64,000 bases of DNA. It comes from Eledone cirrhosa (taxonomy: Eukaryota). The stretch spans positions 113,894,001-113,958,000 of the forward strand of contig OZ024741.1 of assembly GCA_964016885.1 (NCBI GenBank). Direction: 5' to 3'. Of this stretch, positions 557 through 54,313 are shown in pieces. Position 1 is the stretch's first letter. The number at the start of each line of letters is the position of its first letter. The translations under genes and the position numbers were made by a program. The notes beneath the pieces were generated by a model. The model was given only the letters and a program-made list of their open reading frames with translations, was not told the origin of the DNA and did not search any database.

Positions 557-681
557 GTTAGAGTTAGGGCTATGCCTAGGGCTGAGATTGTGCTAGGGTC
601 AATGTTATGTTTAGGGTTGGGTTTATGGTTTAGGTTTAGGGTTAGGGTTAGGGTTATGGTTAAGGTAAGGGTTAGGGTTAT
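557..681 (+). repeat. degenerate interstitial (TTAGGG)n-like repeat
   Basis: tttagggttagggttagggtta and many one-off variants. Confidence 0.75.
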
Positions 682-735
682 TGTTACTACTATGGTTTAA
701 TATATTCACTGTACAGCACCTTGTGCAAGTGTATA

Positions 736-778
<43 letters not shown>

Positions 779-779
779 G

Positions 780-914
780 CATGCTTTAAATGGGCATGCT
801 ATGAAGGTACACAGAAATACACATATCATCATCATCATTTTAAAGCGGACGTAAAATGATGATGATGACATATGTGTTTCTATGTACCTTCATAGCATGC
901 CCATTTAAAGCATG
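780..914. repeat. long inverted repeat (~63 bp arms, 9 nt loop)
   Basis: catgctttaaatgggcatgctatgaaggtaca... is mirrored by ...tgtaccttcatagcatgcccatttaaagcatg. Confidence 0.9.
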
Positions 915-1129
915 AGCAACATTTGTTTATGTCCTGTATAAACAATATATTCTGCAGCTAACTGGTTTAATGAAAATGAGTGGTATATATCATACTTAAA
1001 AATAAAATAAAAATACAGTATGGGCTGGCATCAGGAACAGTATCCATCTGTAGGAAAACTGCATCAAAAATGACTTGTCCAACCCATACCAGTATGGAAA
1101 AAGCTGCCATAAATATATAGGGGATAAAT

Positions 1130-1262
1130 ACGACCACCATGATCATGACGATGATGGCCATGATGAAGAAGATGACCATCATGATGATGATGAACATGAT
1201 CATGACGATCATGATACTCATGACAAAAATGACGGTGATAATGATGACTATTATGATGATGA
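1130..1262. repeat. degenerate (GAT/CAT)n microsatellite
   Basis: direct reading; source of the His/Asp/Met-rich spurious ORFs. Confidence 0.85.
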
Positions 1263-1320
1263 AACAAACAATAATTTTCTCACATGCAAATACACATAGG
1301 TTTGTATCCACATTTTGGGT

Positions 1321-1640
1321 GAAGGCATGTAGTTTAGTGGTTAGGGTGTTCAACTCATGATCATAGAGTCATGAGTTTGATTCTTGGACTGGGCAGTGTG
1401 TCATAACATTGAGCAAGACACTTTATTTCATATTGATCCAGTCTACTCAGCTGGCAAAAATGAGTTGTACTTGTAATTCAAGGGACCAGTTTTGTTACAC
1501 ACTCTGTCCCACTGAATCTCCCTCAGATCTAAATTAAGGGTACCCGTGTCTGTGGAATGCTCAGCCACTTACACATTAATTTCATGAGCATGCAGCTCCA
1601 TCGATTGAATCAACTGGAGCACTCATCATCAGAAACAACA
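1321..1640 (+). mobile_element. tRNA-derived SINE
   Basis: A box tagtttagtgg, B box gagtttgattc, body gagcaagacactttatttc..ccagtctactcagctg; 3' part recurs near 36340-36480 and 46740-46860. Confidence 0.75.
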
Positions 1641-1879
1641 GAGGGCTTGTATATGAACATTTTACACTAAGTCTGAGAGAATGTGGAGGTGGAACTGATG
1701 AGAAAAGGCAATTCTCAGCTACTAAGGGTAGGACTTCTAACCATTTTCCAAGACACAAACCAAAATATGGAGCCACAAATTGATAAGAACACACCATCCC
1801 CAGCTGAATTTCACCATAAATACAGATTGTCTGTAATATATAAAATTTATAAAATGATACTGGCAGCAATGATGGAAAT

Positions 1880-2110
1880 ATAGTGGTGGCATCGGTGGTA
1901 GTGGTGTGGTGGTGGTGGTGATGGTGGAGGGAGTGGTGGCGGGGGTGGTGTTGTTGTTGTTGGTGGTGATGGCAGCGGTGTTTGTGGTGTTGGTGATGGT
2001 GGTATCAGTATATTTGTTATTGTTGTTGTTGTTAGTGGTGGTTGTGGTGGTGGTGGTGGTGTGTTAGTGGTGAAGATGATGGAAATATTATAGGTGATTG
2101 TGGATAGTGG
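1880..2110. repeat. degenerate (GGT/GTT)n microsatellite
   Basis: direct reading. Confidence 0.85.
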
Positions 2111-2413
2111 CAGTGAATACATATATATATATTATGATGAAAACAGGTAGTAGCAATCCAATAGCATTTATTCCAGAGCCCAATATTTCCCACCCACCCC
2201 CTTCTTCAACGACCGGGGGAAGGGGACAGGGGGGGAGGGAGTTTGTGGTGGTGGGAAGGGAGGGGGGATTACTGTATTTTTGACATGAAATTACCATGAA
2301 ATATTTATGTATTCCAAGAATGATAACTTTCAAAATCTATTCCCTCCACTACCAGTTATAAAAAGGAAAAACACTACTACAATCATCACATTATCATTAT
2401 CAGTTATTGAAGT

Positions 2414-2727
<314 letters not shown>

Positions 2728-3334
2728 ATAAAGTATGTCCTAGAATCATTTGATAATATATATACACCATTTCCTCTCCCAATTAACATAATTAACCACA
2801 CAAAAAATCTATTAGACCAGGCTATAAGATTAAAAGGCACCTATAAAGAAATAGTAGATAAATAAACGACAGCAATCTCTTCGCGGCCAACCGCCATAGA
2901 ATATTTACCCAACAAATCAACAGCACGTGGAAATCGATTAAATATACCGTCAACCATACACAATTAGGTGTAAAATTAAAGTTAGAAGAAATGCATATAT
3001 ACCTACCAGGATTATGATTCTACCCTCGGGTTTCGTTCGCATTTGGAAATATCCTATTAAGGATAAAATCTCGAGCTTCGAACTCATCAGGAAACAAACT
3101 CGTTTGGACAAATAATTTTCTAAAGTGATCCCCGCCAGAAACGAATTCAAAATGGCTAAGAATTGTGACGTGGCAGTGGTCAAGTCAGAAATAATGTGAT
3201 TGGTTGCTTACGGCGAGTGCGCTGGTTGCTAGAAAGCGCAGCCCAATATTGCCCAAATTGCATCTCAACCTAATGGGAGATTATTAAATATAAAGATTTA
3301 CATAGACAAAGCCACAGATATATATTTTTTTGTG

Positions 3335-3461
<127 letters not shown>

Positions 3462-3589
3462 AGGAAGTTATAGTTCACTTGAAGCATTGTGTAATGAGGT
3501 ATAAACGTTTGTATGTGTAAAGCCAAAATAATGCAGGTATGGACATAGAATATAAATGCAAATGCAAAAGATATTGTTGAGAATTAGTC

Positions 3590-4480
3590 TTTTACCTTAA
3601 ATTTATTTAAATGTCCTTAATTTTCGAGATAATATCTCTTCTTCGGAGGGGAGTAAAGCGGTTAAACCAGTGTTCTAAATAGCGTGCCAAGTCATGCTGA
3701 CAGGAAATGGTATAGAGTATCTGTTCTATCTCTAATGTCAAAGAGTGAAGGTTAGGTGGGTAAAGAGTAGTCTCCCTTTAAAAGGGGTTTTGTACATGCA
3801 TGTTTAAGTGTGTGGGAGAATACGTGAAGGTGTAAGTATGTGTGTGTGTGTGCGAGTGTAAGAAGATATGTCTATACGTAAATGTACGTATAGACATAGG
3901 TAGATGCTCTCTCGTGTTAGAATCGGTCTTTGTGTGTGTGTGAGAGAGAATAAGTGGAGGTGTAAGCGTGTATGTGTGGGGGGTGTAAGTATGGGGGAGG
4001 GGGTGTAAGTATGGGGCTAGAATTTCTATCAAGTTATAAATTGGGTGTTGAGTTATAGTCTATTATTGATTGGTGGTTGTGTTTTATCTATAATCAGTGC
4101 TTCCTTAATTCTAAGATTGCCGAGGTTTCTTTCCTTAGTTTCTATCCTAACGGTTATAGTTTTGTCGGTGTTTTTGCATTTCATTAGGTGTTTCTTAAAT
4201 GAGGAAGCGTTAGTATTGAGGTGTTCTTTTATTCTTATGAGAAGTGGTCTGGTGGTGCTACCTACGTAGAAGTTGCTGCATTTGTCGCACTCTAGTCTGT
4301 ATACGACGTAAGCCTGGTGGCATAGGTCTGTGTCGTTGATGGAGCAGTTGGCTAGCCTACAGCGGCTGTCATGTCTGGTGGAGTGTCTTTTGGTTAGCTG
4401 TCCGCGTAGAGAAGGTCCTGAGTGGGCTAGTTGGATATCTAGTCCCTCTCGTCTGATAGCTCTGCGGATGGCTGTTATAC
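3590..4480 (-). mobile_element. Penelope-like element 3' fragment with GIY-YIG endonuclease and downstream hammerhead-like motif
   Basis: ORF 4053-4484: CRLANC..C..VVYRLECDKCSNFYVGSTTRPLLIRIKEH..IKEALII..P.IN; degenerate minimal hammerhead at ~3614-3650. Confidence 0.85.
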
Positions 4481-4539
4481 ACATACATACATCTACAGTA
4501 CTCTATGGAATGTGAGACCATACATAAACAAGACACTGA

Positions 4540-4665
4540 TCCCTGGTTTGCTTGGGAAATCAGTGGTTTCGTTTCAGTATGGACTTGTTCTATGTAGACC
4601 CATCCAACCCTTGCTAGCAGACAAAGCAGACATTAAAAGGACAATGATGGTGATGATGAGGATGA
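4540..4665 (+). mobile_element. RTE LINE 3' tail fragment
   Basis: agacccatccaacccttgctagcag...(gat)n, homologous to the tail at 18325-18390. Confidence 0.6.
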
Positions 4666-4737
4666 ATATATATACATATATATACATATATGCGTACACA
4701 TATATATATATATACACACACACACACATACGTACAC

Positions 4738-4799
<62 letters not shown>

Positions 4800-5246
4800 G
4801 TGTGTGTGTGTGTGTAAGTATAGCATTGTGAGATATATGAGACTGATAAATTTCAAAAAGGCAGGATAATGTGGTAGAAATATATAAAGGGCAAAGGATG
4901 ACAAATAAAACATGGTTTTATAGAGGTGATGGAAAGGAATGTGGGCAATTTCAGAATCAAACAATTTCAACAACAAGAAAAAACCACAGATGAATAATAG
5001 ATTGGAATGCAGGAAACATACATGTGTATTTCAGAGTTAAGGAAGAACTCATCAATTGTTCATTTTTGTTTTGAACCGTTTCCGTTTCACATTTGAAAAG
5101 AGGGCAATAAATAGCCTTGAAATATGTTGAAATATCCTGGATACAACATAATTTTGTTTTGTTTTGTTTGTCATGCTTTGCCCTTTATATATTTCTATCG
5201 CATTGTACCATTCCTGCTTACTTGTACATACATACATACATACATA

Positions 5247-8200
5247 ATGGCGACCGTTGTGGTCAGTGTCCGATAATCGGACGTGTGTAATTACGGCTTA
5301 CATGAAGGCAACATACCATATATTGGAAAAAGTTGAGCTACATTACGCGGTAAGATTACATACAATAATTCTACATAAGTGTTTGAACTGTAAGTGTGTT
5401 GTAAAACACCTATTTATATGAACGATACATACACTTATGATATATGAACGATACATGCACTTTAACATATAAATGAAACGTTGTTATATTACATTTATAA
5501 AGAAATATACAAGTAACGTTTTCGATGCAGAAACAAAAACATAAGTGTTTGAACTGTGAATATGTTGTGAATAAGTTGTAGAACACCTGTTTATATGAAT
5601 GATACATAAACTTTAACATATAAATACAGCGTTGTTATATTATATTACATTCATAAAGAAATATACTAAGTAACGGTTCTTTTTGTTCTCGATTCAAACG
5701 ATTCAAGAACAACGTTTAAAACACAGTTGTAGAATTAAAAACTAACTGAAAAGAAATATTACCCAAGCTGTGAATAACTTTAAATTTGATTCTGACAGAA
5801 CTTTGTCGAAACTTTTAAAGAAGATCATCGACTATTTTGAAAAATAAATACGAAATATTAGTGAATAGACGAACTCATCATGGCAAAAAGTACAAGTCTC
5901 CTTCGACCAAATCGCAACTACAACCGTTGTATACAGTGGAGCTACGAGCTTAACAAAGAATTATATGAAGCATACAAACAATCTGAACCCCAAAAGTTCG
6001 GTTTTATGCAAAGGCTAAAAACTTTATGGAACTCCAAACACCCAGAATTAGACTTTTCTCCAAAGCATTTAAATGAACAGGCAAAACGTATCATTAGATG
6101 TAAATTGATACATCTAACGGAATTGAGTGATACTACAAATACAGCCCTTGTAGACAACCACTCCACCTCCACTGACAGACAAAGAGAATGGCCAGCTAAA
6201 TCTAACAGTGAACAGCTCACCAACAATTTTGCTGAAATCCATCCCACTTCCACTGAAGAACAGCGAGAAAGGTCAGCTAACTCTAGTAGTAATTGTCACC
6301 ACATCAACAACGAGGCTGAAATTCATGACTCTACTGAACAAACAGAACACCAAAAACTTGTGGACACCCTACAAGTGATATGGAACGATATGTTTCAAGA
6401 GATACACAGCCTTAATGTGAGTGACAGACCATACAACACTAGAGTCAGTAAAGAACCCACTAAATTGGAATTGGAAGCGGTGAACGAAATAGCTGGCAAT
6501 TATCTGAAGGCTATACGTGTATAAACGACATTTGAAACGCTTAATATTTTGTTATATGTTTCAGCTGTCACATTGCTATCATATAACACACATCTAAAAC
6601 CACGCAATCAAGATACAAACAGAAAGCCTGAACCAGCGTGGATGCGAAATTTAAAAAGCAAAATTTTGTCCCTGAGACGAAGTATCTCACACATCGCAGT
6701 CGTTATGAAATGCAACATAGATAGCAACTTCACACGACACCAGGAAGACCTAAAAAAAAGTTAGAGAGACGATTTGGAGATACAAAATTTAAAACTTTGA
6801 ACTCCAAATTACACCAGTTGAAACAACAACTCACAGCTACAACAGAAAGACTAAAATATAATTCAACAGCACATAAACGACAAGTGCTAAATAGATTGTT
6901 TGCCAGAGATCCTAAATCAGTTTATCGCAGCTTCGGTGGCAAAAGCTCAATCCCTGTAAATGACACCCCTTCAAAACAACAGTTGAGAGCTACTGGAGAT
7001 CTGTATGGGAAACGGATGACGGATTCAACAGACAAACTAATTGGCTAAAAGAACTGGAACAAGACTACTGCCAACATGTCCAGACAAAACAATATGACAT
7101 AGATGGATCAATACTGGAAACAGCTCTACAGAAAATGTCGAATAGGAAATCACCAGGCCCAGACCTCATTACAGGATACTGGTTGAAAAATTTTACTTTC
7201 TATCGGCAAGATCTCATACGGCTATTTAGAGAAACCATTAAAGGCACACGAGAACTGCCCAGATGGTTATCAACTGCCACTACTCTCCTCATTCCCCAAA
7301 ATAGCCAAACCACCCTTGCTAAAAATTACCGCCCAATTGCCTGCCAAAACATCATGTATAAATTATATATTGGGTGCCTTAACCTCTTCTTACAGGATCA
7401 CTGTGCTACCAACAACATCATAACACCTGAGCAAGCTGGTGGAAAGAGGGAGGTGTGGGGTTGCATAGATCACCTACTAACTAACAAAATGATTCAGGAA
7501 AAAACAACAAAGAATCGCAGAAACATGACTGTGGTGTGGCTGGACTATCAAAAAGCATTTGATAGTGTACCTCATGAGTGGATTATTAAGGCTTTACAGT
7601 TAGCTATAGTCCCACAACCATTGGTAGCTGCTGTTGAACGCCTGACCAAGAATTGGTACACCAATTTGATCCTTAGAGGTGAGAAGGAGCAAGTTAAGAC
7701 TGATAAGATACATTACCAGAAGGGCATTTTTCAGGGTGATAGCTTGTCAGTGCTACTCTTCGTTCTCTCACTGAATCCACTATCTTACCTACTCAGGAAA
7801 CAAGGTGGACAAAGAAGTGGGCCCAGAAGTATCTCCCATCTTTTCTTTGTTGACGACCTGAAGTTGTATGGGCCAAATATCAATGACATCAAGAAACAAT
7901 TGGACCTCATTACACAATTTTCAACCGACATCAAAATGAAATTTGGTGAGTCCAAGTGTGCATATTTGGCAGTAAAACGTGGAAGAGCTGTGCCCTCCTC
8001 TAGAAATCTAGAGATGAACGGCCTGACAATACAACCTCTACAGTCAGGTGACAACCACAGATATCTTGGACAGGATGAGAATGTCAGATATGATGGACCC
8101 ATAAATAAGGAGAGAACCAGAACTGAATACCTCAGAAGAGTAAAGAAAATATGGTCATCAGAATTGTCAACGTACAACAAATACATTGCCCACAATACTT

Positions 8201-9470
8201 ATGCTGTGCCAATTCTAACGCCAATTCTAACGCCAACATTTGGCCTGCTGAACTGGTCATTGCAAGAACTAAGTGAGATGGATGTTAGAACTCGAAAACT
8301 TCTCAGTGTTACTGGGAACTTTAACATCAATGGTGATGTGGATAGGCTATACTTCTCACGCAAGGAAGGTGGCTGGGGTCTAAAATCAATATTAACAACA
8401 TATGAGACCCGGATAGTAACACTGAAGCAACGCCTTCAACAGAGGAAAAAGGTTGGCAACCATCTTGCCCAGGTTTATGAGCATGAAAAAAAAAATATCA
8501 TTAGAATAGCGACTGATCTGGAGGAGAGATATGGAATAAAGCCTGATATAAATCTCTCACCCAGAGAAATCGGAAGATCCTATTCAATGTTCAAACAAGA
8601 TTTAAAAAATTGACCAATTTACAGAAAAAGTTGTGCATGGATAATTGAGGCGTAAAACACAGACCATAGAGGGGATAAACCACTCAAAAAGCCTGGCATG
8701 GAGTTCCGACAAGTTTATGACATCACACCTTGAGGGATATCTCTATGCAATACAGGAACAAGAACTCCCTACCAAATATCTGCTGCACAAAAGAGGAGGG
8801 CCAGCAGCTGACAATAAATGTAGGCTATGTAAAACAAAGATCGAGGATGTAAGCCACATTATTGCCAGCTGCGAAAGAATGTCATCTCGCTACTACCTCC
8901 CATGAGACGCGATGGGATAGCTAGAACCATCTGGAACGCACTTCGGAAAACAAAATTAACAACAAACGAGGAAGAATATATTGAGACAGATGGCACTAAG
9001 GAATACTGGTGGAACCTGAAAATAAAAACTGCCACCAAATTAAAGCACAACCGGCCTGATATTGTTGTTTGGGACCACACATTGAAAACGTGTTCTGTTG
9101 TGGAGATCAGCTGCCCACTTGATGTAAATGTTGTCAGAAAAATACAGGAGAAGGAGGACATCTACGGACCATTGATGAGGAGTTTACAAATCCAGTATCC
9201 AAGATACACCTTTAACTTCATACCCATCATTATTGGAGCTACGGGTTATATACCAACCCGCTTGGACCAAAGTATGACTGAACTTGGATTTGCGGACAAA
9301 AAGCGCAGCTCCCTAATTCATAGTCTGCAAATGGCTGCGATAGCTGGCACCTTCAAAATTTGCAAAACATTCTTGCGATTCAAGAGATGACAACTTCTTT
9401 TCATTTACAACCTTGCCACCAGGAAGGTGGCCGGTCAAAAAAAATACTCGAAATTAATAGAAAGAGATAA
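5247..9470 (+). mobile_element. full-length R4/Dong-clade non-LTR retrotransposon (RT + CCHC + restriction-like endonuclease) inserted in (CATA)n
   Basis: RT motifs KSPGPD, NYRPIAC, LDYQKAFDSV, GIFQGDSLS, FVDD; CRLC..HIIASC; RHD/KHNRPDIV..VEISCP..KEDIY RLE domain; (CATA)n on both flanks. Confidence 0.93.
5880..9390 (+). pseudogene. disrupted single ORF of the R4 element
   Basis: collinear ORF pieces 5880-6524, 6549-6764, 6797-7048, 7135-8613, 8645-8905, 8902-9390 broken by stops and frameshifts. Confidence 0.88.
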
Positions 9471-9521
9471 CATACATACATACATACATACATACATACA
9501 TACATACATACATACATACAT

Positions 9522-10125
9522 GGTGGCTACCAACTCGTTTTCGAGTACGGCTACTACTCTATATCCTTATAGGAGAACTCCTACCGATGCGCTGAACGAG
9601 TGTGACTTTTTAGTCCAGCCAGCAACTTGAAAACTCTGGTACAAACACTACACTTGTGACAATTATTGACACATAGTGCTGGGCCCATGGTACCATGTGA
9701 CGACAAGTGCAGAGAGATCTCCAGATATAAAGCAATGCCTGTGTCGTGAAGCTTTTATAGTGAGCAAAGGCACTGCACAAAGCCAGTCCCACTCTCTTAA
9801 CCAAGATGATATTTACCAAAAAGAAAAACAAGTCAACATCATTGGATACCATCAGGGTTGCAGGTGTTATATCAGAGTTTTCCTTCTCCTAGAATTCTGC
9901 CTTGACAAAGGCTAAGGAGTCATCTCTCCCGGTGATTTTGGATGGCCATTGACTCTTAAGAGCTCCTTTGACCTTTGACAGGTTTTGTTTTTAGTCCTGC
10001 AGGATGTCCAGTCACCCTCCTCACCAAGAAACCTTGTAGGGGTTGCCAGTTTAGTCGCCAACGACCTGACCATGAGACAGGTTGTACTGGGATACATGTT
10101 ACCAGTAGCACCAACTGGTGACCTG
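9522..10125 (-). mobile_element. non-autonomous bipartite RTE-derived element 'B', copy 1 (RTE-type 5'UTR + C2H2 zinc-finger 3' end, (TATG)n tail)
   Basis: minus strand carries ctaggagaaggaaaactctg (RTE 5'UTR-type motif) and ends CSVCTRVFKLLAGLKSHTRSAHR*; no RT; (CATA)n on both flanks. Confidence 0.75.
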
Positions 10126-10185
10126 ACATACATACATACATACATACATACATACATACATACATACATACATACATACATACAT

Positions 10186-10820
10186 GGTGGCTGCCAACTC
10201 GTTTTCGAGTACGGCCACTACTTTACATCCATGTAGGATAACCCCTACCGAAGCGCTGAACGAGTGTGACTTTTTAGTCCAGCCAGCGACTTGAAACCTC
10301 TGGTACAAACACTACACCTGTGACAATTATTGACACATAGTGCTGGGCCCATGGTAGGACAATTATTGACACATAGTGCTGGGCCCATGTGAGGACAAGT
10401 GCAGAGAGATCTCCAGATATAAAGCAATGCCTGTGCCGTGAAGCTTTTATAGTGAGCAAAGGCACTGCACAAAGCCAGTCCCACTCTCTTAACCAAGATG
10501 CTATTTACCAAAAAGAAGAACAAGTCAACATCATTGGATACCATCAGGGTTGCAGGTGTTATATCAGAGTTTTCCTTCTCCTAGAATTCTGCCTTGACTA
10601 AGGCTAAAGGGGTCATCTCTCCCGGTGATTTTGGATGGCCATTGACTCTTAAGAGCTCCTTTGCCCTTTGACAGGTTTTGTTTTTAGTCCTGCAGGATGT
10701 CCAAAGTCACCCTCCTCACCAAGAAACCTTGGTGGGGTTGCCAGTTTAGTCGCCAACGACCCGACCATGAGACAGGTTGTACTGGGATACATGTTACCAG
10801 TAGCACCAACTGGTGACCTG
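10186..10820 (-). mobile_element. element B copy 2
   Basis: same termini as copy 1, with substitutions and an internal duplication of gacaattattgacacatagtgctgggcccatg. Confidence 0.8.
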
Positions 10821-10872
10821 ACATACATACATACATACATACATACATACATACATACATACATACATACAT

Positions 10873-12457
10873 ACATCAAGAAACAATTGGACCTCATTAC
10901 ACAATTTTCAACCGACATCAAAATGAAATTTGGTGAGTCCAAGTGTGCATATTTGGCAGTAAAACGTGGAAGAGCTGTGCCCTCCTCTAGAAATCTAGAG
11001 ATGAACGGCCTGACAATACAACCTCTACAGTCAGGTGACAACCACAGATATCTTGGACAGGATGAGAATGTCAGATATGATGGACCCATAAATAAGGAGA
11101 GAACCAGAACTGAATACCTCAGAAGAGTAAAGAAAATATGGTCATCAGAATTGTCAACGTACAACAAATACATTGCCCACAATACTTATGCTGTGCCAAT
11201 TCTAACGCCAATTCTAACGCCAACATTTGGCCTGCTGAACTGGTCATTGCAAGAACTAAGTGAGATGGATGTTAGAACTCGAAAACTTCTCAGTGTTACT
11301 GGGAACTTTAACATCAATGGTGATGTGGATAGGCTATACTTCTCACGCAAGGAAGGTGGCTGGGGTCTAAAATCAATATTAACAACATATGAGACCCGGA
11401 TAGTAACACTGAAGCAACGCCTTCAACAGAGGAAAAAGGTTGGCAACCATCTTGCCCAGGTTTATGAGCATGAAAAAAAAAATATCATTAGAATAGCGAC
11501 TGATCTGGAGGAGAGATATGGAATAAAGCCTGATATAAATCTCTCACCCAGAGAAATCGGAAGATCCTATTCAATGTTCAAACAAGATTTAAAAAATTGA
11601 CCAATTTACAGAAAAAGTTGTGCATGGATAATTGAGGCGTAAAACACAGACCATAGAGGGGATAAACCACTCAAAAAGCCTGGCATGGAGTTCCGACAAG
11701 TTTATGACATCACACCTTGAGGGATATCTCTATGCAATACAGGAACAAGAACTCCCTACCAAATATCTGCTGCACAAAAGAGGAGGGCCAGCAGCTGACA
11801 ATAAATGTAGGCTATGTAAAACAAAGATCGAGGATGTAAGCCACATTATTGCCAGCTGCGAAAGAATGTCATCTCGCTACTACCTCCCATGAGACACGAT
11901 GGGATAGCTAGAACCATCTGGAACGCACTTCGGAAAACAAAATTAACAACAAACGAGGAAGAATATATTGAGACAGATGGCACTAAGGAATACTGGTGGA
12001 ACCTGAAAATAAAAACTGCCACCAAATTAAAGCACAACCGGCCTGATATTGTTGTTTGGGACCACACATTGAAAACGTGTTCTGTTGTGGAGATCAGCTG
12101 CCCACTTGATGTAAATGTTGTCAGAAAAATACAGGAGAAGGAGGACATCTACGGACCATTGATGAGGAGTTTACAAATCCAGTATCCAAGATACACCTTT
12201 AACTTCATACCCATCATTATTGGAGCTACGGGTTATATACCAACCCGCTTGGACCAAAGTATGACTGAACTTGGATTTGCGGACAAAAAGCGCAGCTCCC
12301 TAATTCATAGTCTGCAAATGGCTGCGATAGCTGGCACCTTCAAAATTTGCAAAACATTCTTGCGATTCAAGGGATGACAACTTCTTTTCATTTACAACCT
12401 TGCCACCAGGAAGGTGGCCGGTCAAAAAAAATACTCGAAATTAAGAGAAAGAGATAA
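10873..12457 (+). mobile_element. 5'-truncated R4 copy 2
   Basis: near-identical to 7886-9470; starts at ACAT microhomology with the (CATA)n tract. Confidence 0.93.
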
Positions 12458-12520
12458 CATACATACATACATACATACATACATACATACATACATACAT
12501 ACATACATACATACATACAT

Positions 12521-14290
12521 ACATCAAGAAACAATTGGACCTCATTACACAATTTTCAACCGACATCAAAATGAAATTTGGTGAGTCCAAGTGTGCATAT
12601 TTGGCAGTAAAACGTGGAAGAGCTGTGCCCTCCTCTAGAAATCTAGAGATGAACGGCCTGACAATACAACCTCTGCAGTCAGGTGACAACTACAGATATC
12701 TTGGACAGGATGAGAATGTCAGATATGATGGACCCATAAATAAGGAGAGAACCAGAACTGAATACCTCAGAAGAGTAAAGAAAATATGGTCATCAGAATT
12801 GTCAACGTACAACAAATACATTGCCCACAATACTTATGCTGTGCCAATTCTAACGCCAATTCTAACGCCAACATTTGGCCTGCTGAACTGGTCATTGCAA
12901 GAACTAAGTGAGATGGATGTTAGAACTCGAAAACTTCTCAGTGTTACTGGGAACTTTAACATCAATGGTGATGTGGATAGGCTATACTTCTCACGCAAGG
13001 AAGGTGGCCGGGGTCTAAAATCAATATTAACAACATATGAGACCCGGATAGTAACACTGAAGCAACACCTTCAACAGAGGAAAAGGGTTGGCAACCATCT
13101 TGCCCAGGTTTATGAGCATGAAAAAAGAAATATCATTAGAATAGCGACTGATCTGGAGGAGAGATATGGAATAAAGCCTGATATAAATCTCTCACCCAGA
13201 GAAATCGGAAGATCCTATTCAATGTTCAAACAAGATTTAAAAAATTGACCAATTTACAGAAAAGGTTGTGCATGGATACTTGAGGCGTAAAACTCAGACC
13301 ATAGAGGGGATAAACCACTCAAAAAGCCTGGCATGGAGTTCCGACAAGTTTATGACATCACACCTTGAGGGATATCTCTATGCAATACAGGAACAAGAAC
13401 TCCCTACCAAATATCTGCTGCACAAAAGAGGAGGGCCAGCAGCTGACAATAAATGTAGGCTATGTAAAACAAAGATCGAGGATGTAAGCCACATTTTTGC
13501 CAGCTGCGAAAGAATGTCATCTCGCTACTACCTCCCCACGAGACACGATGGGATAGCTAGAACCATCTGGAACGCACTTCGGAAAACAAAATTAACAACA
13601 AACGAAGAAGAATATATTGAGACAGATGGCACTAAGGAATACTGGTGGAACCTGAAAATAAAAACTGCCACCAAATTAAAGCACAACCGGCCTGATATTG
13701 TAGTTTTGGACCACACATTGAAAACGTGTTCTGTTGTGGAGATCAGCTGCCCACTTGATGTAAACGTTGTCAGAAAAATACAGGAGAAGGAGGACATCTA
13801 CGGACCATTGATGAGGAGTTTACAAATCCAGTATCCAAGATACACCTTTAACTTCATACCCATCATTATTGGTTGGCAGTATCGGTGGAGGGTCGGACAC
13901 CATGCTTTCCAGCATAGTTACGTCCCTTTACGATCTGAGTTCAAATCCCGCCGAGGTTGACTTTGCCTTTCATCCTTACGGGGTCGATAAAATAAAGTAC
14001 CAGTAATGCACTGGGTAATTGCTAGCCTTGTGCCTAAAGTAGAAACAAATATTGGTGCTACGGGTTATATACCAACCCGCTTGGACCAAAGTATGACTGA
14101 ACTTGGATTTGCGAACAAAAAGCGCAGCTCCCTAATTCATAGTCTACAAATGGCTGCGATAGCTGGCACCTTCAAAATTTGCAAAACATTCTTGCGATTC
14201 AAGGGATGACAATTTCTTTTCTTTTACAACCTTGCCACCAGGAAGGTGGCCGGTCAAAAAAATATACTCGAAATTAAGAGAAAGAGAAAA
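12521..14290 (+). mobile_element. 5'-truncated R4 copy 3 (with SINE insertion)
   Basis: same 5' junction as copy 2; more substitutions; ORF 13268-13960 lacks two of the lesions in copies 1 and 2. Confidence 0.93.
13873..14049 (+). mobile_element. SINE family A inserted into R4 copy 3
   Basis: B box gagttcaaatcc, body gcctttcatccttacggggtcgataaaataaagtacc; TSD tattgg; absent from R4 copies 1 and 2. Confidence 0.9.
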
Positions 14291-14373
14291 CATACATACA
14301 TACATACATACATACATACATACATACATACATACATACATACATACATACATACATACATACATACATACAT

Positions 14374-14659
14374 GGTGGCTGCCAACTCGTTTTCGAGTAC
14401 GGCCACTACTTTATATCCATGTAGGAGAACTCCTACCGTTGCGCTGAACGAGTGTGACTTTTTAGTCCAGCCAGCGACTTGAAAACTCTGGTACAAACAC
14501 TACACCTGTGACAATTATTGACACATAGTGCTGGGCCCATGGTACCATGTGACGACAAGTGCAGAGAGATCTCCAGATATAAAGCAATCCCTGTGCCGTG
14601 AAGCTTTTATAGTGAGCAAAGGCACTGCACAAAGCCAGTCCCACTCTCTTAACCAAGAT
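14374..14659 (-). mobile_element. element B copy 3, 5'-truncated
   Basis: matches the 3' half of B (9522-9808), joined directly to (CATA)n. Confidence 0.85.
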
Positions 14660-14686
14660 ACATACATACATACATACATACATACA

Positions 14687-14717
<31 letters not shown>

Positions 14718-14870
14718 GTGTGTGTGTATTCAGAAGAGATTGTTTTGGTAAAAACAGGAGTAAGCAGGAGAAAGCTCTCAACAATCGAAGTTTTTAGTTA
14801 CGATGGAGAATTTTATAAAAATGACAAAATAAGATGCTCAGGTTACATATATCGTTTAATCATTATAATT

Positions 14871-15219
14871 ATTTCCACGGTTCTCCATGTAATCGAGATG
14901 CATTTGCTGTTGTTATGAGAACGGTATCCTCAGATGTCACCCGATATGTTTGATATGTCACTGGAAGGAAAAAAACACACGTCCTATTGTGTGCCCAGCA
15001 GATATATCATGTGTATTTCAGATAGTTAAGGAAGAACTCATCAATTATTCATTTTTGTTTTGAACCGTTTCCGTTTCACATATATGTCTGCTGGGCACTC
15101 AAGCAATAGGACGTCTGTTTTTCCTTCCAGCGACATATCAAACATATCGGTATCATCTGAGGATACCGTTCTCATAACAACAACAAATGCATCTCGATTG
15201 CATGGAGAACCGTGGAAAT
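14871..15219. repeat. fold-back, ~135 bp arms, spacer copied from 5021-5092
   Basis: atttccacggttctccatg...cccagcaga mirrored by tctgctggg...catggagaaccgtggaaat. Confidence 0.92.
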
Positions 15220-15316
15220 TTAAACTATAATAAAGGAAGGTCTGCGGGACTGCGTACGGTTTTGTTTTTGTTTTATCCCGTTAGTAAAATAAGTTGGATT
15301 ACTTTGAATAAATAAT

Positions 15317-15488
15317 TGTTTCTATTTTAGACACAAGGCCAGCAATTACTCAGTACATTACTGGTACTTTATTTTATCGACCCCGTAAGGATGAAAGGCA
15401 GGATTTGAACTCAGATCATAAAGGGACGTAACTCTATGCTTCAAAGCATTGTGTCCGACTCTCTGCCGATACTGCCAATCCACTGCCC
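15317..15488 (-). mobile_element. SINE family A
   Basis: homology to 13873-14049; 18-bp TSD ttactttgaataaataat (15299-15316 / 15489-15506). Confidence 0.92.
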
Positions 15489-15921
15489 TTACTTTGAATA
15501 AATAATGAATGAATATTACATAATTTATCTACTAAATTTCGTAAACAAAAATAATTTCGTAAAAATAAATAATTTAAAATTGACTTCGTTTCAAAGTTGC
15601 ACTTCCGGTATATCGTTGCCACCACCACCACTTCAACTACCATATATATAGAAAGAGAGAGTGTATGATATCAACACTTCCGGTGGCGATCACTTAAATA
15701 AACATACCATTTTTCTGTCACTACTTTTCTCCTAATGCAGTTTATATATAATATCGTCTTTTTTTAATGTATCATGGATTACGTTACTGATTACATAAGG
15801 CAGTGTAACAACGTCTTCGTTCAATTTCTGTGTATATTGTCAATTACGGTTTTATTTGATGTATCATATCTACATGTATATATACTTGCGTATAATATCA
15901 ATATACACACTACACATGCTA

Positions 15922-16212
15922 TATATATATATAAATAAAAATATGTGGGTGTAACTATAGTTACAGGTAGTTAGTTGGTTAAAGCACTCAATGCTGTTAT
16001 GAGGTTCCGTCTTATGTATGGTTTATACTTCAGTGTATATATATACAAGTAAGCAGGGATATTACTTGTATTTACACTCTGCATGTTACAGTCACTTTAA
16101 CCCTGGAGTACACTGAAGTATAAACCATACATAAGATGGAACCTCATAACAGCATTGAGTGCTTTAACCAACTAACTACCTGTAATTATAGTTACAACTA
16201 CATATTTTTATT

Positions 16213-16224
<12 letters not shown>
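15922..16224. mobile_element. MITE-like fold-back (~105 bp inverted arms) in (TA)n
   Basis: taaataaaaatatgt..gtttatacttcagtgta mirrored with about 4 mismatches; TA repeats on both sides. Confidence 0.7.
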
Positions 16225-16244
<20 letters not shown>

Positions 16245-16339
16245 CTTGGGTGGGGGAGGTGTGTGGGTATTGGGGTGGTAGCTCTAGGGACGTGTGAGTG
16301 GGAGGTGTATGGAAGTAGGATGGAGGAGAAGGTGGTGCA

Positions 16340-16595
16340 TACTAGATGTACACTTCAAACTGTGCTCATGGGAAGGCAGTTCTTCTGTATTACTGCATAA
16401 TGCCAGAGATTTCAGTCCTGTGTCATTGCCTTTGAGAGGTGAAATTGTGCAAAGACAGCTTTTATTAGCTCATCCCAGGCCTTCCCACTTCATAGCTTCC
16501 GTCAACTTTGAGTGCTCTGCAACTTTCTATACAGCTGTCTTCCTTCATATGCATCACATGTCCATACCAATGCAATCTCCTCTCCTGCACACATA
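16340..16595 (-). mobile_element. RTE LINE 3' coding fragment
   Basis: QERRLHWYGHVMHMKEDS..GRP. Confidence 0.75.
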
Positions 16596-16694
16596 TATAT
16601 ATATGTATCCAACATCCAAAATCCAAGGCCTTCTCAGTCCTGTTCAAAAAACACCTCCCTACTTCTTCTTTGGAGTAACGTTATTTTCCAAATT

Positions 16695-16942
16695 GAGAGA
16701 TCACACCATGTGGATTACAATGTCTTAGGAAAGAATTGCTGGACAGATTTTTATGGGCAAAACCAACCGGCAGGAGATCCAAGGTTAGACCCTGAGCAAG
16801 ATAGTTGAATAACATCCATGAGCTTGGTTGGTCTTGCTTGGTGATCCAGCTAGATCAGTTGGAGATGGTTGCTTCTGAAGGACCCACTGAAAGGAGTGTT
16901 TCAGGACTCTCCCTCCACAATCCTCTCATGAAGAAGAAGAAG
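16695..16942 (+). mobile_element. decayed RTE-type 3' end (second family)
   Basis: HV..MS.ERIAGQILWAKPTGRR-like translation ending in (gaa)n; related fragment at 61270-61400 (-). Confidence 0.5.
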
Positions 16943-18324: not shown

Positions 18325-21300
18325 TCACATCATCATCATTTTACATCCTCTTTTCTCTGCTTGCAAGGGTGGGATGGGTCTTATTCAGCACAGCATCTCT
18401 CCACTTCTCACGGTCCTTCGCAATCTCCACCGTGAGCTTCAGCAATCTGAGGTCTGTTCTCACCACCTCCGCCCATGTTTTTCGGGGCCTACCTCTACCA
18501 CGTCTTCCTTCAACTGGCATTTCCTGGTACTTCTTCACCCATCAGTAATCCTCCATGCGCATCACATGTCCATACCACTGCAGTCTCTTCTCTCGCACAC
18601 TACATTCTATCCCTTTCAGACACAGTTTCTCTCTCAACACATTCATGCTTGACCATTCACGCACATTGACATTGCACATCCAACGGAGCATGGTTGCCTC
18701 ATTTCTCTCCAGCTGTCGCATATCCTCTGCAGTCGCTGCCCATGTCTTACTACCATGCAGCATCGTGCTCCTCACACAGGCATCATATAACCGGCCTTTC
18801 GTATGCAGGGAGAAACCCCTCGTCAGCAGAGGAAGCAGCTCCCTAAACTTCTTTCAACCTGTCCTTATTCTAGATACTATGGCCACAGAACACCCCCACT
18901 CCCATGCTAATCTGATCTCCTAGGTACCGGAAGCTATCAACCAGTTCTATAGCACCCACCTGCATTTGGAAAATGTGTCTATCAATGCGACTTCTACTGT
19001 CTAATTTCGCTGTACATCTACTGCATACATATTTCTCCCTACCTGTTAGTTTGCCTGCTATCCTGCTACATATCTTGTTTACCCAGGATCTGCATTGTGT
19101 GCATTTTATAGAATTTATGCCAGTTCCTTTTCTGCATATCAAACATGGCCATTTCCCTGACAGAATCGGAGTATTGTCCTCTTTTCTACTCATCAACACC
19201 TTTGTCTTAGCTAGGTTCACTCTCAGTCCTCTTGCTTCCAACTGCTGTTTCCATAGCCAGAATTTATTCTCTAGCTCCTCTACTGATTTTGCTATAAGAA
19301 CCAGATCGTCAGCATAGAGAAGTTCCCATGGAACTCCTCTGTTATGGCTTGGAGGACTATAATGAACAAGAGCGGGCTGAGGACCGAACCCTGATGTACT
19401 CCTACTTGTATCTGGAATTCCTCACTAAACTCTATTCCTACCCTGACTTGACTGAGAGTACCTCTGTACTAAGTTTGCACTATACTCACAAGCCATTCCT
19501 CAACACCCAGCTTCCTTAGGGACCATCAGATGACCGATCAGGGTACCCTATCAAAGGCCTTCTCTAGGTCAACAAAAGCTAAGTATAGTGACTTATTCTT
19601 CTCTAAGAATCTCTCTTGTAATGGTCTCACCAAGAAGAGGGCAACTGTTGTACCTTTCCCAGGCACAAAACCAAATTGCATCTCATCTAGTTTGACCCTT
19701 TCTCTAATTAGTTGTGCTAATATCCTTTCTGCCACTTTCATAACCTGATCCATCAGTTTTATACCTCTATAATTGCTCCTCTCCAGAGCATCCCCTTTAC
19801 TTTTGTAGCAATTTATGAGAATACTGCTGCACCATTCTTTGGATATGACACCGCCATATATAGCCTGATTGATGATGCATGCAACCAGTTTCGTGCCTAC
19901 GTCCTCTGATGCCTTCAGCATCTCAGCAACTATCTCCGACGGTCCAGCGGCCTTACCATTTTTTAATCGCCTCTTGGACTCTATATTCGTCAATCTCAAT
20001 AGCTGGTCCCTCTGTCGGATCTACTGAGGGTAATTTCTCTCTCTCCCCATTCATCAGTCTCTTATAATGACATTTCCAGGCCTCCTTTTTCTGATCATTC
20101 ATGACACTAAGTACACCAGCATCATTCTGGACATATTTATCTCCAACAGCATCCTTATTTGCATTGACACACTGCTTTGCAATGTGGAACACCGCACATC
20201 TCTGATCTTTCCGCACGTCTCTGATCTTTCCGTCGCAGAACATTGGAAAACCTCCTACTCTCAGCCTCCCTGCGTGCTACGTACACCTGATGTCTAGCTT
20301 ATCTTTTAGTGGCTGTATATCCTTCTCTACTCCAACCCTTTTTCCAAGCCTTCCATGCTAGTCTGTTGTCTCTAATGGCCCTATCTACCATGATGCTCCA
20401 CCACCAGGTCAGTCTCTGTCTGGTTGGAGCTCTGCTCCAGCCACAAGTTTCATCAGTAGTCTGCAGTAAGTTGTCATATAAGAAATTCCAGTTATGATCT
20501 ATGTCATATGACTCTAAATCATCTTCTTTTTCGTCATACACATCTTGAAGAGCTTTCCTAAATTTGTATTTTAGTGAAAGGTCTTTTAGCTTCCAGACCT
20601 TTCTTCTCCACACCTTCCTGCATGTCTCATTCCGTCTCTTGCTTACTGAGATATCACTAACAACTAACCTATGTTGTGGGGTACAATCTTCCCCATGTTA
20701 TGCCTTGGTATTTGACACCATCTGCCTGTCCCACTGCCTAACTAGTAAGAAGTCAATCTGGCTTATGTGCTCGCCTGATTTGTAGGTTATTAGGTGGTTG
20801 GCAGGTTTCTGTAAGTTAGTGTTGCAAATGGTCAGTGTACTTGCATCACAAAATTCAAGAAGTCTCAATCCTTCTTCATTTTTTGAGCCGTAACCATGCC
20901 CACCATGTACCCCAGTGTAACCATCCTGGAGCTGTCCAACATGACCATTGAAGTCCCCTGCTAGCATAACGATGTCTCCGTCCTGTGTCATTGCGGCTGT
21001 TTGTAAATGTTGCTTGTAAAAGCAGTCATTCTCTTCTTTACCTAGGCCTGCTTGGGGAGCATAGGCAGAGATGATTGTCAGTAGTCTCCTGCCTACAACT
21101 AATCTAAGCTTAATTATTCTATTATTAACTCGAACTATCTCTATTGTGTTATTGATCTATCTTTCAGCCAGGAAAATGCCTACTCCCCTTAACCCATCAT
21201 CCTTACCTACCCAGAAAAGCTTATAACTAAGATGTTTGCCTGCGATTAGTCTCGCAGAGGCACCTCTCCATCTCACATCTTGCACGCAGCACACATCCAC

Positions 21301-23665: not shown

Positions 23666-24269
23666 TACAGTAAAGCATACCTCAATCTAAATTCAAATAT
23701 TCAAATATTTTATTGGAGAAATAATAGCTAGATGTTTTATAACAACATAAAAGATAATATAAAACAGAAAATAGAAGATAGCTAACAATGGTGATTAAAT
23801 TCAACTGGGTTTAGCTAATATGAAGAAGCAAGACATTGTGAATTATAAAATCAGCCACAAGCAAAGACTGTTACTTGTCTGTGTTCATAGCAATATAAAT
23901 GTGTTTTCATTCCAGCAAGACGTAATGAATGGATAGTAGTTAGTAGAGAGTGTAAATTTACGTCAGAAGTACGTCACATGGGGTTTTAAAATGATAGATT
24001 GTTCTATTTAAATATTAAAAATATGATTTTACATGACAAAATATTGGGGAAACAGTACCATTAGGATGATTTACAACTTGTTAAAGGAAATAGAAAAATA
24101 GAAACAAAACATACATACATTTACATATTCATACATACTCATACATACATATATATACATTTATATATAAACACATACAAACATATATGTACATACATAC
24201 ATATATGTACATACATACATATATATTTACATAAAAATATACATACATACATCCTCCGACAACATTTAC

Positions 24270-25180
24270 AAACAAACCTCCAAACAAAGGAGCCCATCTA
24301 TTAAGCAAGTCTGTCTGCATGAGACAGATAAGATTATGAGAGGAACTCCCTGCATGTTAATCAAAAACTCACACCCAGGGAAATTGCCCAGCAATACCAT
24401 AGTGAATCCATGGATGAAAAGCTGCATGCTTATCAGCAAAAAATCATGCATGGATATGTTGCCAGGAAGCTCCAGAGTGAGAGTAATATAGATAAGCAAA
24501 GTAGTCTATCTTGGACCAACAGCCGCTATATTGGCTTCCACTTTGAAGGATATGCTTTTGCAATCCAAGAACAGGAAATTAACACTTAGAAAACACTTAC
24601 ATGTGACAAATGCAGACTCTGAAGAATTAACATTGATGTCCAAAGATGCCATCAAGGTACTATCTACCTATGAGGCATGATGTAGTGGCCAAAACACTGT
24701 ACAATGCAATCCGTAGAAAAGATAGCCCCGACAATAAACACATTAAAAGCTACAGCAATGTGGAAGACATACACATACATAATATGAAAGAGTACTGGTG
24801 GAATGTTCCAGTAAAAACCCCAATAAAATGCAGGCATAACAGACAAGGTATAATGATATGGGACAGGGAAAAGAAGGCATGCACAGTAGTGGAAGTTAGC
24901 TGCCCAGCAGATGCCAATATAATATCAAAGATTAGCGAAAAGGAGAATATCTATGCAGAACTAATGAGAAATCTACAGATACTCAACCCTGACTATACCT
25001 TCAGATTTATACCTGTGGTTATTGGGGCACTGGGATATATTAGTAACTGCCTCAGTACAAATCTTGAGAAACCAGGCTCCACAAAAATAGAAAGAACATG
25101 ACTAGTTAGAAAATTACAAGTACAATCCATTAATGGAACAGTAAAAATAAGTAAAACATTCCAAAAATTCTGCATCTAAT
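24270..25180 (+). mobile_element. old R4-clade 3' fragment (RLE domain)
   Basis: SRYYLPMRHDVVAK..EYWWN..VVEVSCP..KENIY; degenerate (CATA)-rich flanks. Confidence 0.85.
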
Positions 25181-25339
25181 AACTCCATGTATGCATGTAC
25201 AGATATAAAGCATATACACATGCACACATATAACTCAAAACATACACCTCCACACATACAATAACATCCATATCTACACACACATGCATGCATGCAGACA
25301 TGCAGACATATCAAGAACATACATAAAATGGAAAAGGTG

Positions 25340-26745: not shown

Positions 26746-27286
26746 ATACATGTAATCATATATAAACATACACATACATGTACAAATAAGTACATAGATT
26801 TGTTCATATATATATATGCCTATAAATATATTCATATATAGATATATGCATACATTTCTATAATACATGCATACATATATGTATAGGCATGTATGTATAT
26901 ATATAAATACATATATCCATACATTCGTAAATACATATATACATTTATTCAATCATTCACAGCCTTCACATATGCATATACATATGTAATGTGCATACAT
27001 ATTTATAGTGAGAGTGAGTGGGGAGTGATGTAGGAAGAAGTAAGAGGGAAGATAGAATGGTGGAACAGAACTTCACTATTTTGCTTGATTTAATCAGTAG
27101 TGTCATTACAGATGAAAGCAAAGAGAAGTGTTTTGCTGAAATTTCATTAGTGAAAAATAACGAGGGTATATTAGAAAATTGTATGGAATGTATCTCATGC
27201 TATTATGCTAGTAGAATTGAAAACAACATTGGCTGCATTACTCCTATTACTACTACCACTACTACTGCTACTAATAATAATAATAA

Positions 27287-28395: not shown

Positions 28396-28459
28396 TATTA
28401 TTATTAATAATAATTTCTTTCTCAGCCACGAAGGGCTCACATTAAGCAACCACTCATGA

Positions 28460-54150: not shown

Positions 54151-54313
54151 TGAGTGTCCGTATTTTTCAGTCTCTCCAGAATTCCGTAGTCCATCCATCA
54201 TATCGAAAGGCAACCAAGTCTAAACTTAAGAAGTGATATCATAGGCCGCTGAATTATGATTGGTCCAAATAATAATGGTGGTGAGTGGGGGCGGAGGAAG
54301 GGATCTGGGGTAG

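Follow-up and report, generated by a model that had tools for sequence, protein, structure and literature searches.

Opposite-strand nesting of R4/Dong-type and RTE-derived retroelements in an (ACAT)n microsatellite of Eledone cirrhosa

The 9.5-kb nest found in the 64,000-nucleotide stretch of E. cirrhosa DNA analyzed here (the window) is quite probably a microsatellite that was hit repeatedly by two unrelated retrotransposon lineages, acting independently of one another, and that afterwards underwent local exchange. A preliminary description had set out the order, strands and junctions of this nest, with every R4 copy on the plus strand and every copy of a second element, B, on the minus strand, and the assembly matches it on each of these points, with seven perfect (ACAT)n arrays separating the elements (Table 1). 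Each lineage likely prefers, independently of the other, the opposite strand of the ACAT repeat, which would create the back-to-back layout. The pattern is genome-wide, and the nest, as one instance of it, is an expected by-product.

Table 1. Features of the nest, in coordinates of the window
Feature	Position	Strand	Remarks
(ACAT)n array M0	5225..5246	none	5.5 units
R4/Dong-type LINE, ACAT-targeting family	5247..9469	+	full-length but dead; RVT_1 E=4e-24
(ACAT)n array M1	9470..9521	none	13 units
B1	9522..10125	-	604-bp bipartite non-autonomous RTE derivative
(ACAT)n array M2	10126..10185	none	15 units
B2	10186..10820	-	full B with 28-bp internal duplication
(ACAT)n array M3	10821..10876	none	14 units
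R4 t1	10877..12456	+	5′-truncated
(ACAT)n array M4	12457..12524	none	17 units
R4 t2	12525..14289	+	5′-truncated
183-bp insertion of an abundant short repeat inside t2	13867..14049		short target-site duplication
(ACAT)n array M5	14290..14373	none	21 units
Bt	14374..14659	-	5′-truncated B (3′ 286 bp)
(ACAT)n array M6	14658..14716	none	14.8 units; first two bases common to Bt (microhomology)

The two elements share this target, with fixed and opposite polarity, well beyond the window. Most of the loci scored were best-scoring young copies rather than a census, and nine loci that were window-derived, overlapping or near-duplicate (L001, L031, L032, L161, L061, L079, L200, L202 and L040) were left out of the flank and pair counts. 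Under a microsatellite criterion that 10% of random 24-mers pass as background, the 5′ flank qualifies at 66 of 69 full-length B copies and 40 of 41 full-length R4 copies at other loci, and also in 5′-truncated copies (22/36 for B, 31/38 for R4). R4 has ACAT polarity at all 63 3′ ends and all 41 full 5′ ends, while B has ATGT polarity at 96 of 111 3′ ends and, in full copies, at 65 of 69 5′ ends. Adjacent B and R4 copies are opposite in orientation in 31/31 pairs; the RTE or its other derivative (C) is likewise opposite to R4 in 10/10 pairs and oriented as B in 19/20. The fixed opposite polarity first described from the window therefore holds genome-wide, and mixed nests of B and R4 occur in 2 of 127 random 10-kb stretches. 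A back-to-back layout is also present on (TAA)n with other families (15/17 TAA versus 11/12 TTA). The preference on the RTE side is not strict: a 5′ flank that reaches the microsatellite cut-off is present in 11 of 22 truncated copies of the autonomous RTE and in 10 of the 17 B copies from random stretches. ATGT is missing from the first 12 3′ bases in 18/108 B copies, versus 0/54 R4 copies without ACAT (p=0.0008), a difference that favors independence of the two.

The R4 element has a single frame of 1174 aa in which a putatively Myb-like N-terminus is followed by RT, a CCHC knuckle and a PD-(D/E)xK-type endonuclease. Over 4208 columns aligned with an intact copy, the full-length window copy is interrupted by stops and has 9 indels as well as 102 mismatches; its 5′ end (5247) is common to 40 scored genome matches. 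The frame is open in about 50 of 150 scored matches (counted by eye), and 19 of 20 fetched stretches hold it whole, with RVT_1 found. Both the CCHC knuckle and the PD-(D/E)xK motifs are kept across 60 aligned proteins, a predicted model (pLDDT 88) has R2 proteins as its best folds (E=1e-33), and the protein gave no APE Pfam match. The N-terminus is predicted to form a three-helix domain (pLDDT 89), and no C2H2 or CCHC pattern, that is, no N-terminal zinc finger, occurs in the first 450 residues. The top VIA rows for this domain are mostly Myb/SANT, with a best Z of only 5.9 (rmsd 2.5 over 64 residues), and Foldseek returned no significant match for it. The assignment to R4/Dong is supported by the single RT ORF, the CCHC and PD-(D/E)xK motifs, the lack of zinc fingers and the oriented microsatellite insertion. 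A quick tree, which took in no named R4/Dong clade members, places the ACAT-type lineage, with its FVDD motif, on a long branch away from the TAA-flanked Dong family that this genome also holds (26-39% identity). Among the matches listed, the named relative closest to it comes from Argonauta hians (65%), and none of the 120 homologs listed is a named R4, Dong, Rex6, Hero or NeSL reference. A general Rfam scan of 5000-15600, relevant to the 5′ HDV-like ribozyme of the clade, gave no ribozyme match.

Element B, at about 40,000 copies in the genome, is 604 bp long, bipartite and devoid of a long ORF. Its positions 188-394 align with the 5′ UTR of intact RTEs (68% identity, 229 columns), and its 3′ end matches the intact RTE at 26 of 30 terminal bases (0/1000 shuffles), whereas its match to R4 is no better than shuffles (97-141/1000). 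B and the RTE also have a common 3′ hairpin, and B holds a remnant of the terminal C2H2 finger (15/27 identical, E=1e-8). The RTE-like 5′ UTR, the RTE-like 3′ end and the finger remnant support the proposal that B is an RTE derivative. The intact RTE, a sister of B's lineage, combines APE, RT and terminal C2H2 fingers with a microsatellite 3′ UTR and has frames of 1203 and 1243 aa with Exo_endo_phos, RVT_1 and C2H2 matches; by its architecture and motifs, this autonomous partner appears to belong to the RTE clade. B's own autonomous parent was not found: 0 of 150 scored matches (of 41,432 candidates) carried a genuine long ORF, and such long frames as were checked proved to be microsatellite. 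We therefore infer B's mobilizing enzyme from the sister RTE family. At the 5′ end of B no ribozyme match was found in Rfam, and RNAalifold on 12 relatives showed two-sided change in only 3 of 37 pairs. The fixed (TATG)n tail once ascribed to B is not supported, since 20/53 full copies run on as ATAT and each copy's two flanks are alike.

We propose that the R4/Dong enzyme would nick the ATGT strand and that an RTE enzyme, the likely mover of B in trans, would nick the ACAT strand, and that R4 and B lie in opposite orientations because their enzymes would nick opposite strands. Judging by the junction letters, both primer nicks may fall at or near the same TpA step. An insertion splits the array and repeats remain on both sides, which preserves the site as a target and lets elements accumulate; the nest forms because this target is shared by B and R4. 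In the window, at least five independent insertions are likely (the full R4, t2, B1, B2 and Bt), and local unequal exchange or gene conversion would then have created t1 and the patches in t2. The 183-bp repeat in t2, which we take to be a SINE, would also have inserted after the five. A bolder version is put forward tentatively, as something we doubt more than we believe: that the APE endonuclease of an octopod RTE lineage has evolved genuine specificity for microsatellites, so that R1 and Tx1 would be joined by a third target-specific APE group; that this lineage has converged with a Dong lineage shifted from TAA to ACAT; and that the two unrelated enzymes cut a shared TpA step on opposite strands and together make and maintain much of the genomic ACAT content.

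The history of the individual copies departs from the earlier picture in which every element of the nest was a separate insertion, because the three R4 copies do not represent three independent insertions. Both t1 and t2 start at the same base, equivalent to 7890 in the full R4, and the body of t1 differs from the full copy at 3 of 1580 bases, while t2 has 3′ markers of a different subfamily together with patches in which alleles private to the full copy appear. A 12-bp duplication is present in all three window R4 copies and in 0/18 others. That t1 and t2 lost their 5′ parts independently yet at an identical position is ruled out, given that among 465 pairings of other truncation points none coincides, and simple triplication of one copy is ruled out by the other-subfamily markers in t2. 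It is likely that t1 is a local recombinant or duplicate, though the t1/t2 mosaic could be an assembly artefact. None of four read runs (three of short contigs, one reduced-representation) spans the array, and depths at private alleles are ambiguous. A search for an empty site or alternate haplotype found no second copy of the locus, both flanks of the nest being themselves repeats. Duplication of B within the window is ruled out, since its three copies differ by 2.8-3.6% versus a family median of 2.0%. B2 is a separate insertion because it is 3.6% from B1 and nearer to other genome copies (1.2%), and Bt because it is 2.8-3.5% from B1 and B2.

Shared use of one repeat raises the question of whether the two families help one another. 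Under mutual feeding, insertions would lengthen or create ACAT arrays (through target duplication or tail slippage) and measurably raise the insertion rate of the other family, so that the pair builds much of the genomic ACAT content. Such an element does lie within 400 bp of 26 of the 48 ACAT arrays of 4+ units in random stretches, and slippage is present at 3′ ends. Regeneration of the target, which had been attributed to insertions at large, is supported in one clear case, a B copy with a duplication of about 75 bp that begins inside its ATGT array. Relative to arrays of 3+ units (29/184), B is borderline enriched near R4 (21/82; odds ratio 1.84, 0.98-3.47, p=0.06), with p=0.03 on the 5′ side alone. 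However, no excess is found over arrays of 4+ units (19/80; odds ratio 1.11, 0.54-2.26) or 5+ units (14/57), the array null being conservative and biased towards no excess because it includes B's own flank arrays; the predicted excess of B-R4 co-occurrence over microsatellites thus did not materialize beyond the borderline result for the shortest arrays. B follows RTE 3′ ends (3/20) as often as R4 3′ ends (6/44), and the co-occurrence tests show no sign of mutual help. The two flanks of a B copy correlate in G content (rho 0.52, n=36, permutation p=0.0008), and this concordance points to pre-existing arrays, as do the microsatellite 5′ flanks of 5′-truncated copies of both elements and the start of the 75-bp duplication within an array. 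Elements interrupting each other's bodies, looked for in order to rank the insertions in time, were not found in any case. We therefore regard mutual feeding as unlikely in this strong form; as a weak side effect, it is compatible with independent insertion.

Less probable still is that B was copied by the R4 protein, or primed from R4's second-strand nick on the ACAT strand, an option already raised in the preliminary description. The primer nick of B would lie on the strand of R4's expected second nick, at or near the same step, and the invariably opposite orientation of the pairs and the missing parent of B fit this as well. Yet the 3′ end of B is RTE-like and unlike that of R4, the intact RTE with its own APE domain has B's polarity, and the ACAT-type R4 family lies within 1.5 kb of only 3 of 29 B-anchored loci. 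Moreover, B uses (AT)n arrays and R4 was never seen there, with 12/108 B copies running into pure (AT)6 at the 3′ end versus 0/54 for R4. We give equally little credence to a B that does not target at all, whose own end repeats (a 5′ TATGT-like leader and a slippage tail) expanded later and left R4 as the sole targeting element. Here, TTATGT precedes 14 of 53 full B copies, looks element-encoded and is kept outside microsatellites in older relatives; RTE tails generate repeats (PMC2887409), and half of the truncated RTE copies have no 5′ microsatellite. Against this, 5′-truncated B copies without the leader still have an ATGT-polarity 5′ flank (29/36), the two flanks of a copy are correlated, and B copies outside microsatellites yielded no convincing case of an ordinary short target duplication in unique sequence. 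Independent insertion by each lineage remains the reading we prefer.

Two features are new: a Dong-type lineage occupies (ACAT)n in place of (TAA)n, and an RTE lineage strongly prefers microsatellites, which is unusual for RTE. Literature searches turned up no description of an ACAT-targeting Dong or of a microsatellite-targeting RTE, although the repeat library of PMC13282606 could be relevant here. Published accounts name R1 and Tx1 as the only site-specific APE-type LINEs, a list that would grow longer with an RTE lineage that is young, abundant and found mainly in a single type of microsatellite. The many intact copies of the R4 and RTE enzymes make strand and site choice on a four-base repeat directly testable, while the presence of TAA-type and ACAT-type Dong families in one genome offers a ready comparison for learning which domain determines the target. 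That these elements border roughly half of the longer ACAT arrays is relevant to marker design and to repeat annotation in these genomes.

The window R4 resembles Dong of Bombyx mori and the R4/Dong clade, as described in PMC7998251 and PMC2887409, in its single ORF, its N-terminus without zinc fingers (putatively Myb/SANT-like, as theirs is), its RT, CCHC and restriction-like endonuclease, and its oriented microsatellite insertion; Dong and the clade members compared here target (TAA)n, whereas the target here is (ACAT)n. B is built like Bov-A, RTE-N2_Lch, MAR4_MD, RTESINE2 and WALLSI3, in which an RTE 5′ UTR is joined to the extreme 3′ end, and which similarly have no ORF and reach very high copy number (PMC5786205). 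Unlike these, B has microsatellite on both sides with fixed polarity. Typical RTEs insert in a dispersed manner with 6-12 bp target duplications. RTE insertion sites are reported to have no sequence specificity (PMC2887409, PMC1291365); most B copies instead lie inside ATGT/AT arrays, a departure that is the novel point and no argument against RTE ancestry. By its description (PMC9115989), an Octopus vulgaris RTE can be likened to the intact RTE here in having a C2H2 finger and a 3′ UTR rich in microsatellite. B also shares the insertion signature of RTEs, a terminal repeat at the 3′ end that corresponds to the target and may guide priming through pairing (PMC6007223, PMC13295347). Elements with that signature occupy dispersed sites with short duplications, and the 2026 paper of the two states that targets similar to their own 3′ repeats seldom flank them; most copies here lie instead inside the repeat. 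The nest itself recalls R1 arrays and Drosophila dimers, tandem elements that arise when a preferred site is hit repeatedly and unequal exchange follows, and in which the target is kept between neighbors and arrays recombine later (PMC5932611). It differs from these in that two unrelated enzyme classes occupy one target in opposite orientations.

The nest is a real feature, present in the window in the order and on the strands of the preliminary description, with seven perfect (ACAT)n arrays between a 4.2-kb R4-type element (+), two copies of element B (-) and three truncated pieces, two of R4 (+) and one of B (-). The assembly containing the window amounts to 3.0 Gb, and the claimed fixed opposite orientation of R4 and B holds outside the window as well. 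In the flank and neighbour counts, nine window-derived or duplicate loci are excluded, and most remaining loci are best-scoring young copies. R4 is flanked in ACAT polarity at 63/63 3′ ends and 41/41 full 5′ ends, and B by microsatellite, mostly in ATGT polarity, at 101/111 3′ ends and 66/69 full 5′ ends, against a background of 10%. Among neighbours with only microsatellite between them, all 31 B-R4 pairs and all 10 pairs of R4 with the autonomous RTE or its derivative C, a sister family of B, are oppositely oriented, while parallel orientation is found in 22/24 B-B, 19/20 B-C/RTE and 10/11 R4-R4 pairs. Both random stretches holding the R4 family (2/2) contain mixed nests, one made up of 9 pieces and the other of 5, which extrapolates to ~4,700 (570-16,700) such stretches genome-wide; given this recurrence, the nest in the window is not exceptional.

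Coordinates of the nest pieces and of other features (window positions unless a locus is named)
Feature	Position	Strand	Remarks
Full R4 copy	5247-9469	+	
t1, t2 (5′-truncated R4)	10877-12456, 12525-14289	+	
B1, B2	9522-10125, 10186-10820	-	
Bt (5′-truncated B)	14374-14659	-	
B head	9930-10125	-	first ~195 bases of B
Young repeat	14728-15290		immediately 3′ of nest; long inverted arms of 71, 38, 21 nt; 1766 search candidates, identity 93-99%; palindromic part variable among copies; AT/GT microsatellite precedes 5/5 other loci checked
Degenerate short (TTAGGG)n array	604-686		interstitial
Older degenerate (ACAT)n nest	24109-26950	+	3′ part of second ACAT-targeting R4 family (ACAT-type repeats after 3′ end in 26/26 motif matches, some from duplicate loci), then old 75%-identical main-family copy
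(TAA)n nest	27268-31990	-, then +	zf-RVT LINE 3′ fragment (-), degraded full-length TAA-type Dong (+), then SINE; LINE/Dong opposite polarity recurs in random stretches
Other LINE fragments	33004-33993, 51389-54166, 18870-20020, 42837-43900		RT + PHD-like match, (ATC)n tails; presumably CR1-group
B with target duplication	L164:765-1500		
B tandem	L210 (G000:C4:281506000-281515999)		8 full-length B, head to tail
R4 tandems	L199-L202 (G000:C2:225.78 Mb and C14:26.43 Mb)		long R4, 3/4 with intact frame; opposite-oriented B/RTE pieces between

The long R4 copy in the window begins at the family 5′ end (query 1-654 is covered by 40 scored matches) and is dead, carrying stops as well as 102 mismatches and 9 indels over 4208 columns relative to an intact copy. 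The family itself is young, since a 1174-aa open frame was counted by eye in ~50 of 150 scored matches. The intact protein has an RT domain and lacks an N-terminal finger, and its CCHC knuckle and RPD...E...P...K endonuclease motif are kept over 60 homologs. Its predicted structure (pLDDT 88) best matches R2 proteins; the modelled N-terminal three-helix domain bears a weak likeness to Myb/SANT (best Z 5.9), and another structure search gave nothing significant. The nearest named relative is from Argonauta hians (65%), pointing to a probable octopod host, and a quick tree places the ACAT-type R4 on a long branch, separate from a Dong family with TAA flanks that also lies in the window. The element is R4/Dong by architecture, rather than by placement among named references, and its domain layout agrees with that outlined in PMC7998251, where the usual target is (TAA)n in insects, molluscs and cnidarians.

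Element B is 604-606 bp long. A sample of 127 10-kb stretches, taken at even spacing, contains 17 of its 3′ ends, which scales to ~40,000 copies (23,000-64,000). The proposal that it derives from an RTE is borne out: its middle is 68% identical to the RTE 5′ UTR, a last-finger remnant is 15/27 identical (E=1e-8), and 26/30 terminal bases are shared along with a hairpin (0/1000 shuffles as good), a comparison in which the 3′ ends of B and R4 have nothing in common. Because of these likenesses, B is classed from its sequence as a bipartite non-autonomous RTE, of the same kind as those in PMC5786205. The autonomous RTE, reached via a fragment neighbouring B, has intact 1203- and 1243-aa frames with APE, RT and C2H2 fingers, resembles the octopus RTE of PMC9115989 and is the direct parent of C. 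B's own autonomous parent was not found among the 150 candidates scored out of 41,432, and its mobilisation in trans is therefore something we infer. The head of B, kept in C (~85%) and older relatives and having a precise 5′ end, may be a self-cleaving RNA; its covariation is weak, and it has no Rfam match.

B lies <=1.45 kb from 21/82 R4 ends and from 18/762 random windows (odds ratio 14). The claimed excess over a microsatellite null, however, vanishes against arrays of (ACAT)4+ (19/80; odds ratio 1.11, 0.54-2.26) or (ACAT)5+ (14/57), and is borderline against (ACAT)3+ (29/184; p=0.06, with p=0.03 for the 5′ side alone), the array null being small, and conservative because B's own flanks are counted among the arrays. 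B follows RTE and R4 3′ ends at a similar rate (3/20 and 6/44). Pure (AT)n is used by B in 12/108 cases, and ACAT lies within 12 bases at R4 ends in 54/54. No specific R4-B coupling is seen, and the suggestion that the R4 enzyme mobilises B runs against both the RTE-like 3′ end of B, unlike that of R4, and its presence on (AT)n.

RTE elements make repeats at their own 3′ ends at non-specific sites (PMC2887409), and the flanks of B may likewise be partly element-borne, self-made repeat ends rather than a targeted array; TTATGT, which precedes 14/53 full copies, is probably element sequence. However, 5′-truncated copies keep an ATGT-polarity 5′ flank in 29/36 cases (22/36 pass the microsatellite cut-off), flank G content is correlated between the two sides of a copy (rho 0.52, n=36, p ~0.001), and one B, adjoining an R4, has an unusually long ~75-bp target-site duplication starting inside an ATGT array. 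B therefore also inserts into pre-existing arrays. The last copy is a direct case of target duplication, and lends the idea of target regeneration by insertion its one direct example; the fixed (TATG)n tail first ascribed to B gives way, with ATAT instead of ATGT continuing 20/53 full copies. In unbiased stretches the 3′ flank of B starts ATGT or ATAT in 17/17 and the 5′ flank passes the cut-off in 10/17, a preference that is strong, not absolute; truncated autonomous RTE copies pass it in 11/22.

Target-primed reverse transcription uses the nicked strand as primer for the copy. Judging from the 3′ junctions, the nick would fall on the ATGT strand for R4 and on the ACAT or AT strand for B, in each case at a TpA step or close to it; these two strand preferences alone would produce the opposite orientation, with each insertion leaving target on both sides. 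The RTE preference may be set by its endonuclease, or by pairing between the target and the RNA 3′ end, a mechanism put forward in PMC6007223. A back-to-back layout is also found on (TAA)n with other families, where two Dong-type families read TAA (15/17) and a zf-RVT LINE reads TTA (11/12).

Within the nest, B1, B2 and Bt differ mutually by 2.8-3.6%, above the median for the family (2.0%), and all three are nearer to copies elsewhere, which argues for three separate B insertions. The R4 copies contradict the view that every element inserted separately: 3/1580 bases separate t1 from the full copy, but t1 begins at the same base as t2, a coincidence seen in 0/465 pairings of other truncation points, while t2 carries another subfamily's 3′ markers plus patches of the full copy's private alleles (a 12-bp duplication absent in 18/18 others and one base absent in 30/30). 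The simplest reading of these sequences is two R4 insertions, after which unequal exchange would have yielded t1, together with short conversion tracts, a general route of repeated insertion then exchange being given in PMC5932611. The pattern of the R4 copies may instead be an assembly artefact, as no examined read spans the array.

Dong elements that target microsatellites are already known, as are bipartite RTEs and nests formed at a common target, and PMC3774820, PMC7599744 and PMC3747384 provide background only. In the published literature, with repeat databases and paper supplements outside our scope, we found no ACAT-targeting Dong or microsatellite-preferring RTE. The point of interest is the RTE target preference, rather than the nest or an R4-B partnership: in excerpts from the literature RTE is described as non-specific, and R1 and Tx1 are the only site-specific APE clades named (PMC6007223, PMC13295347, PMC4640811, PMC2887409, PMC1291365).
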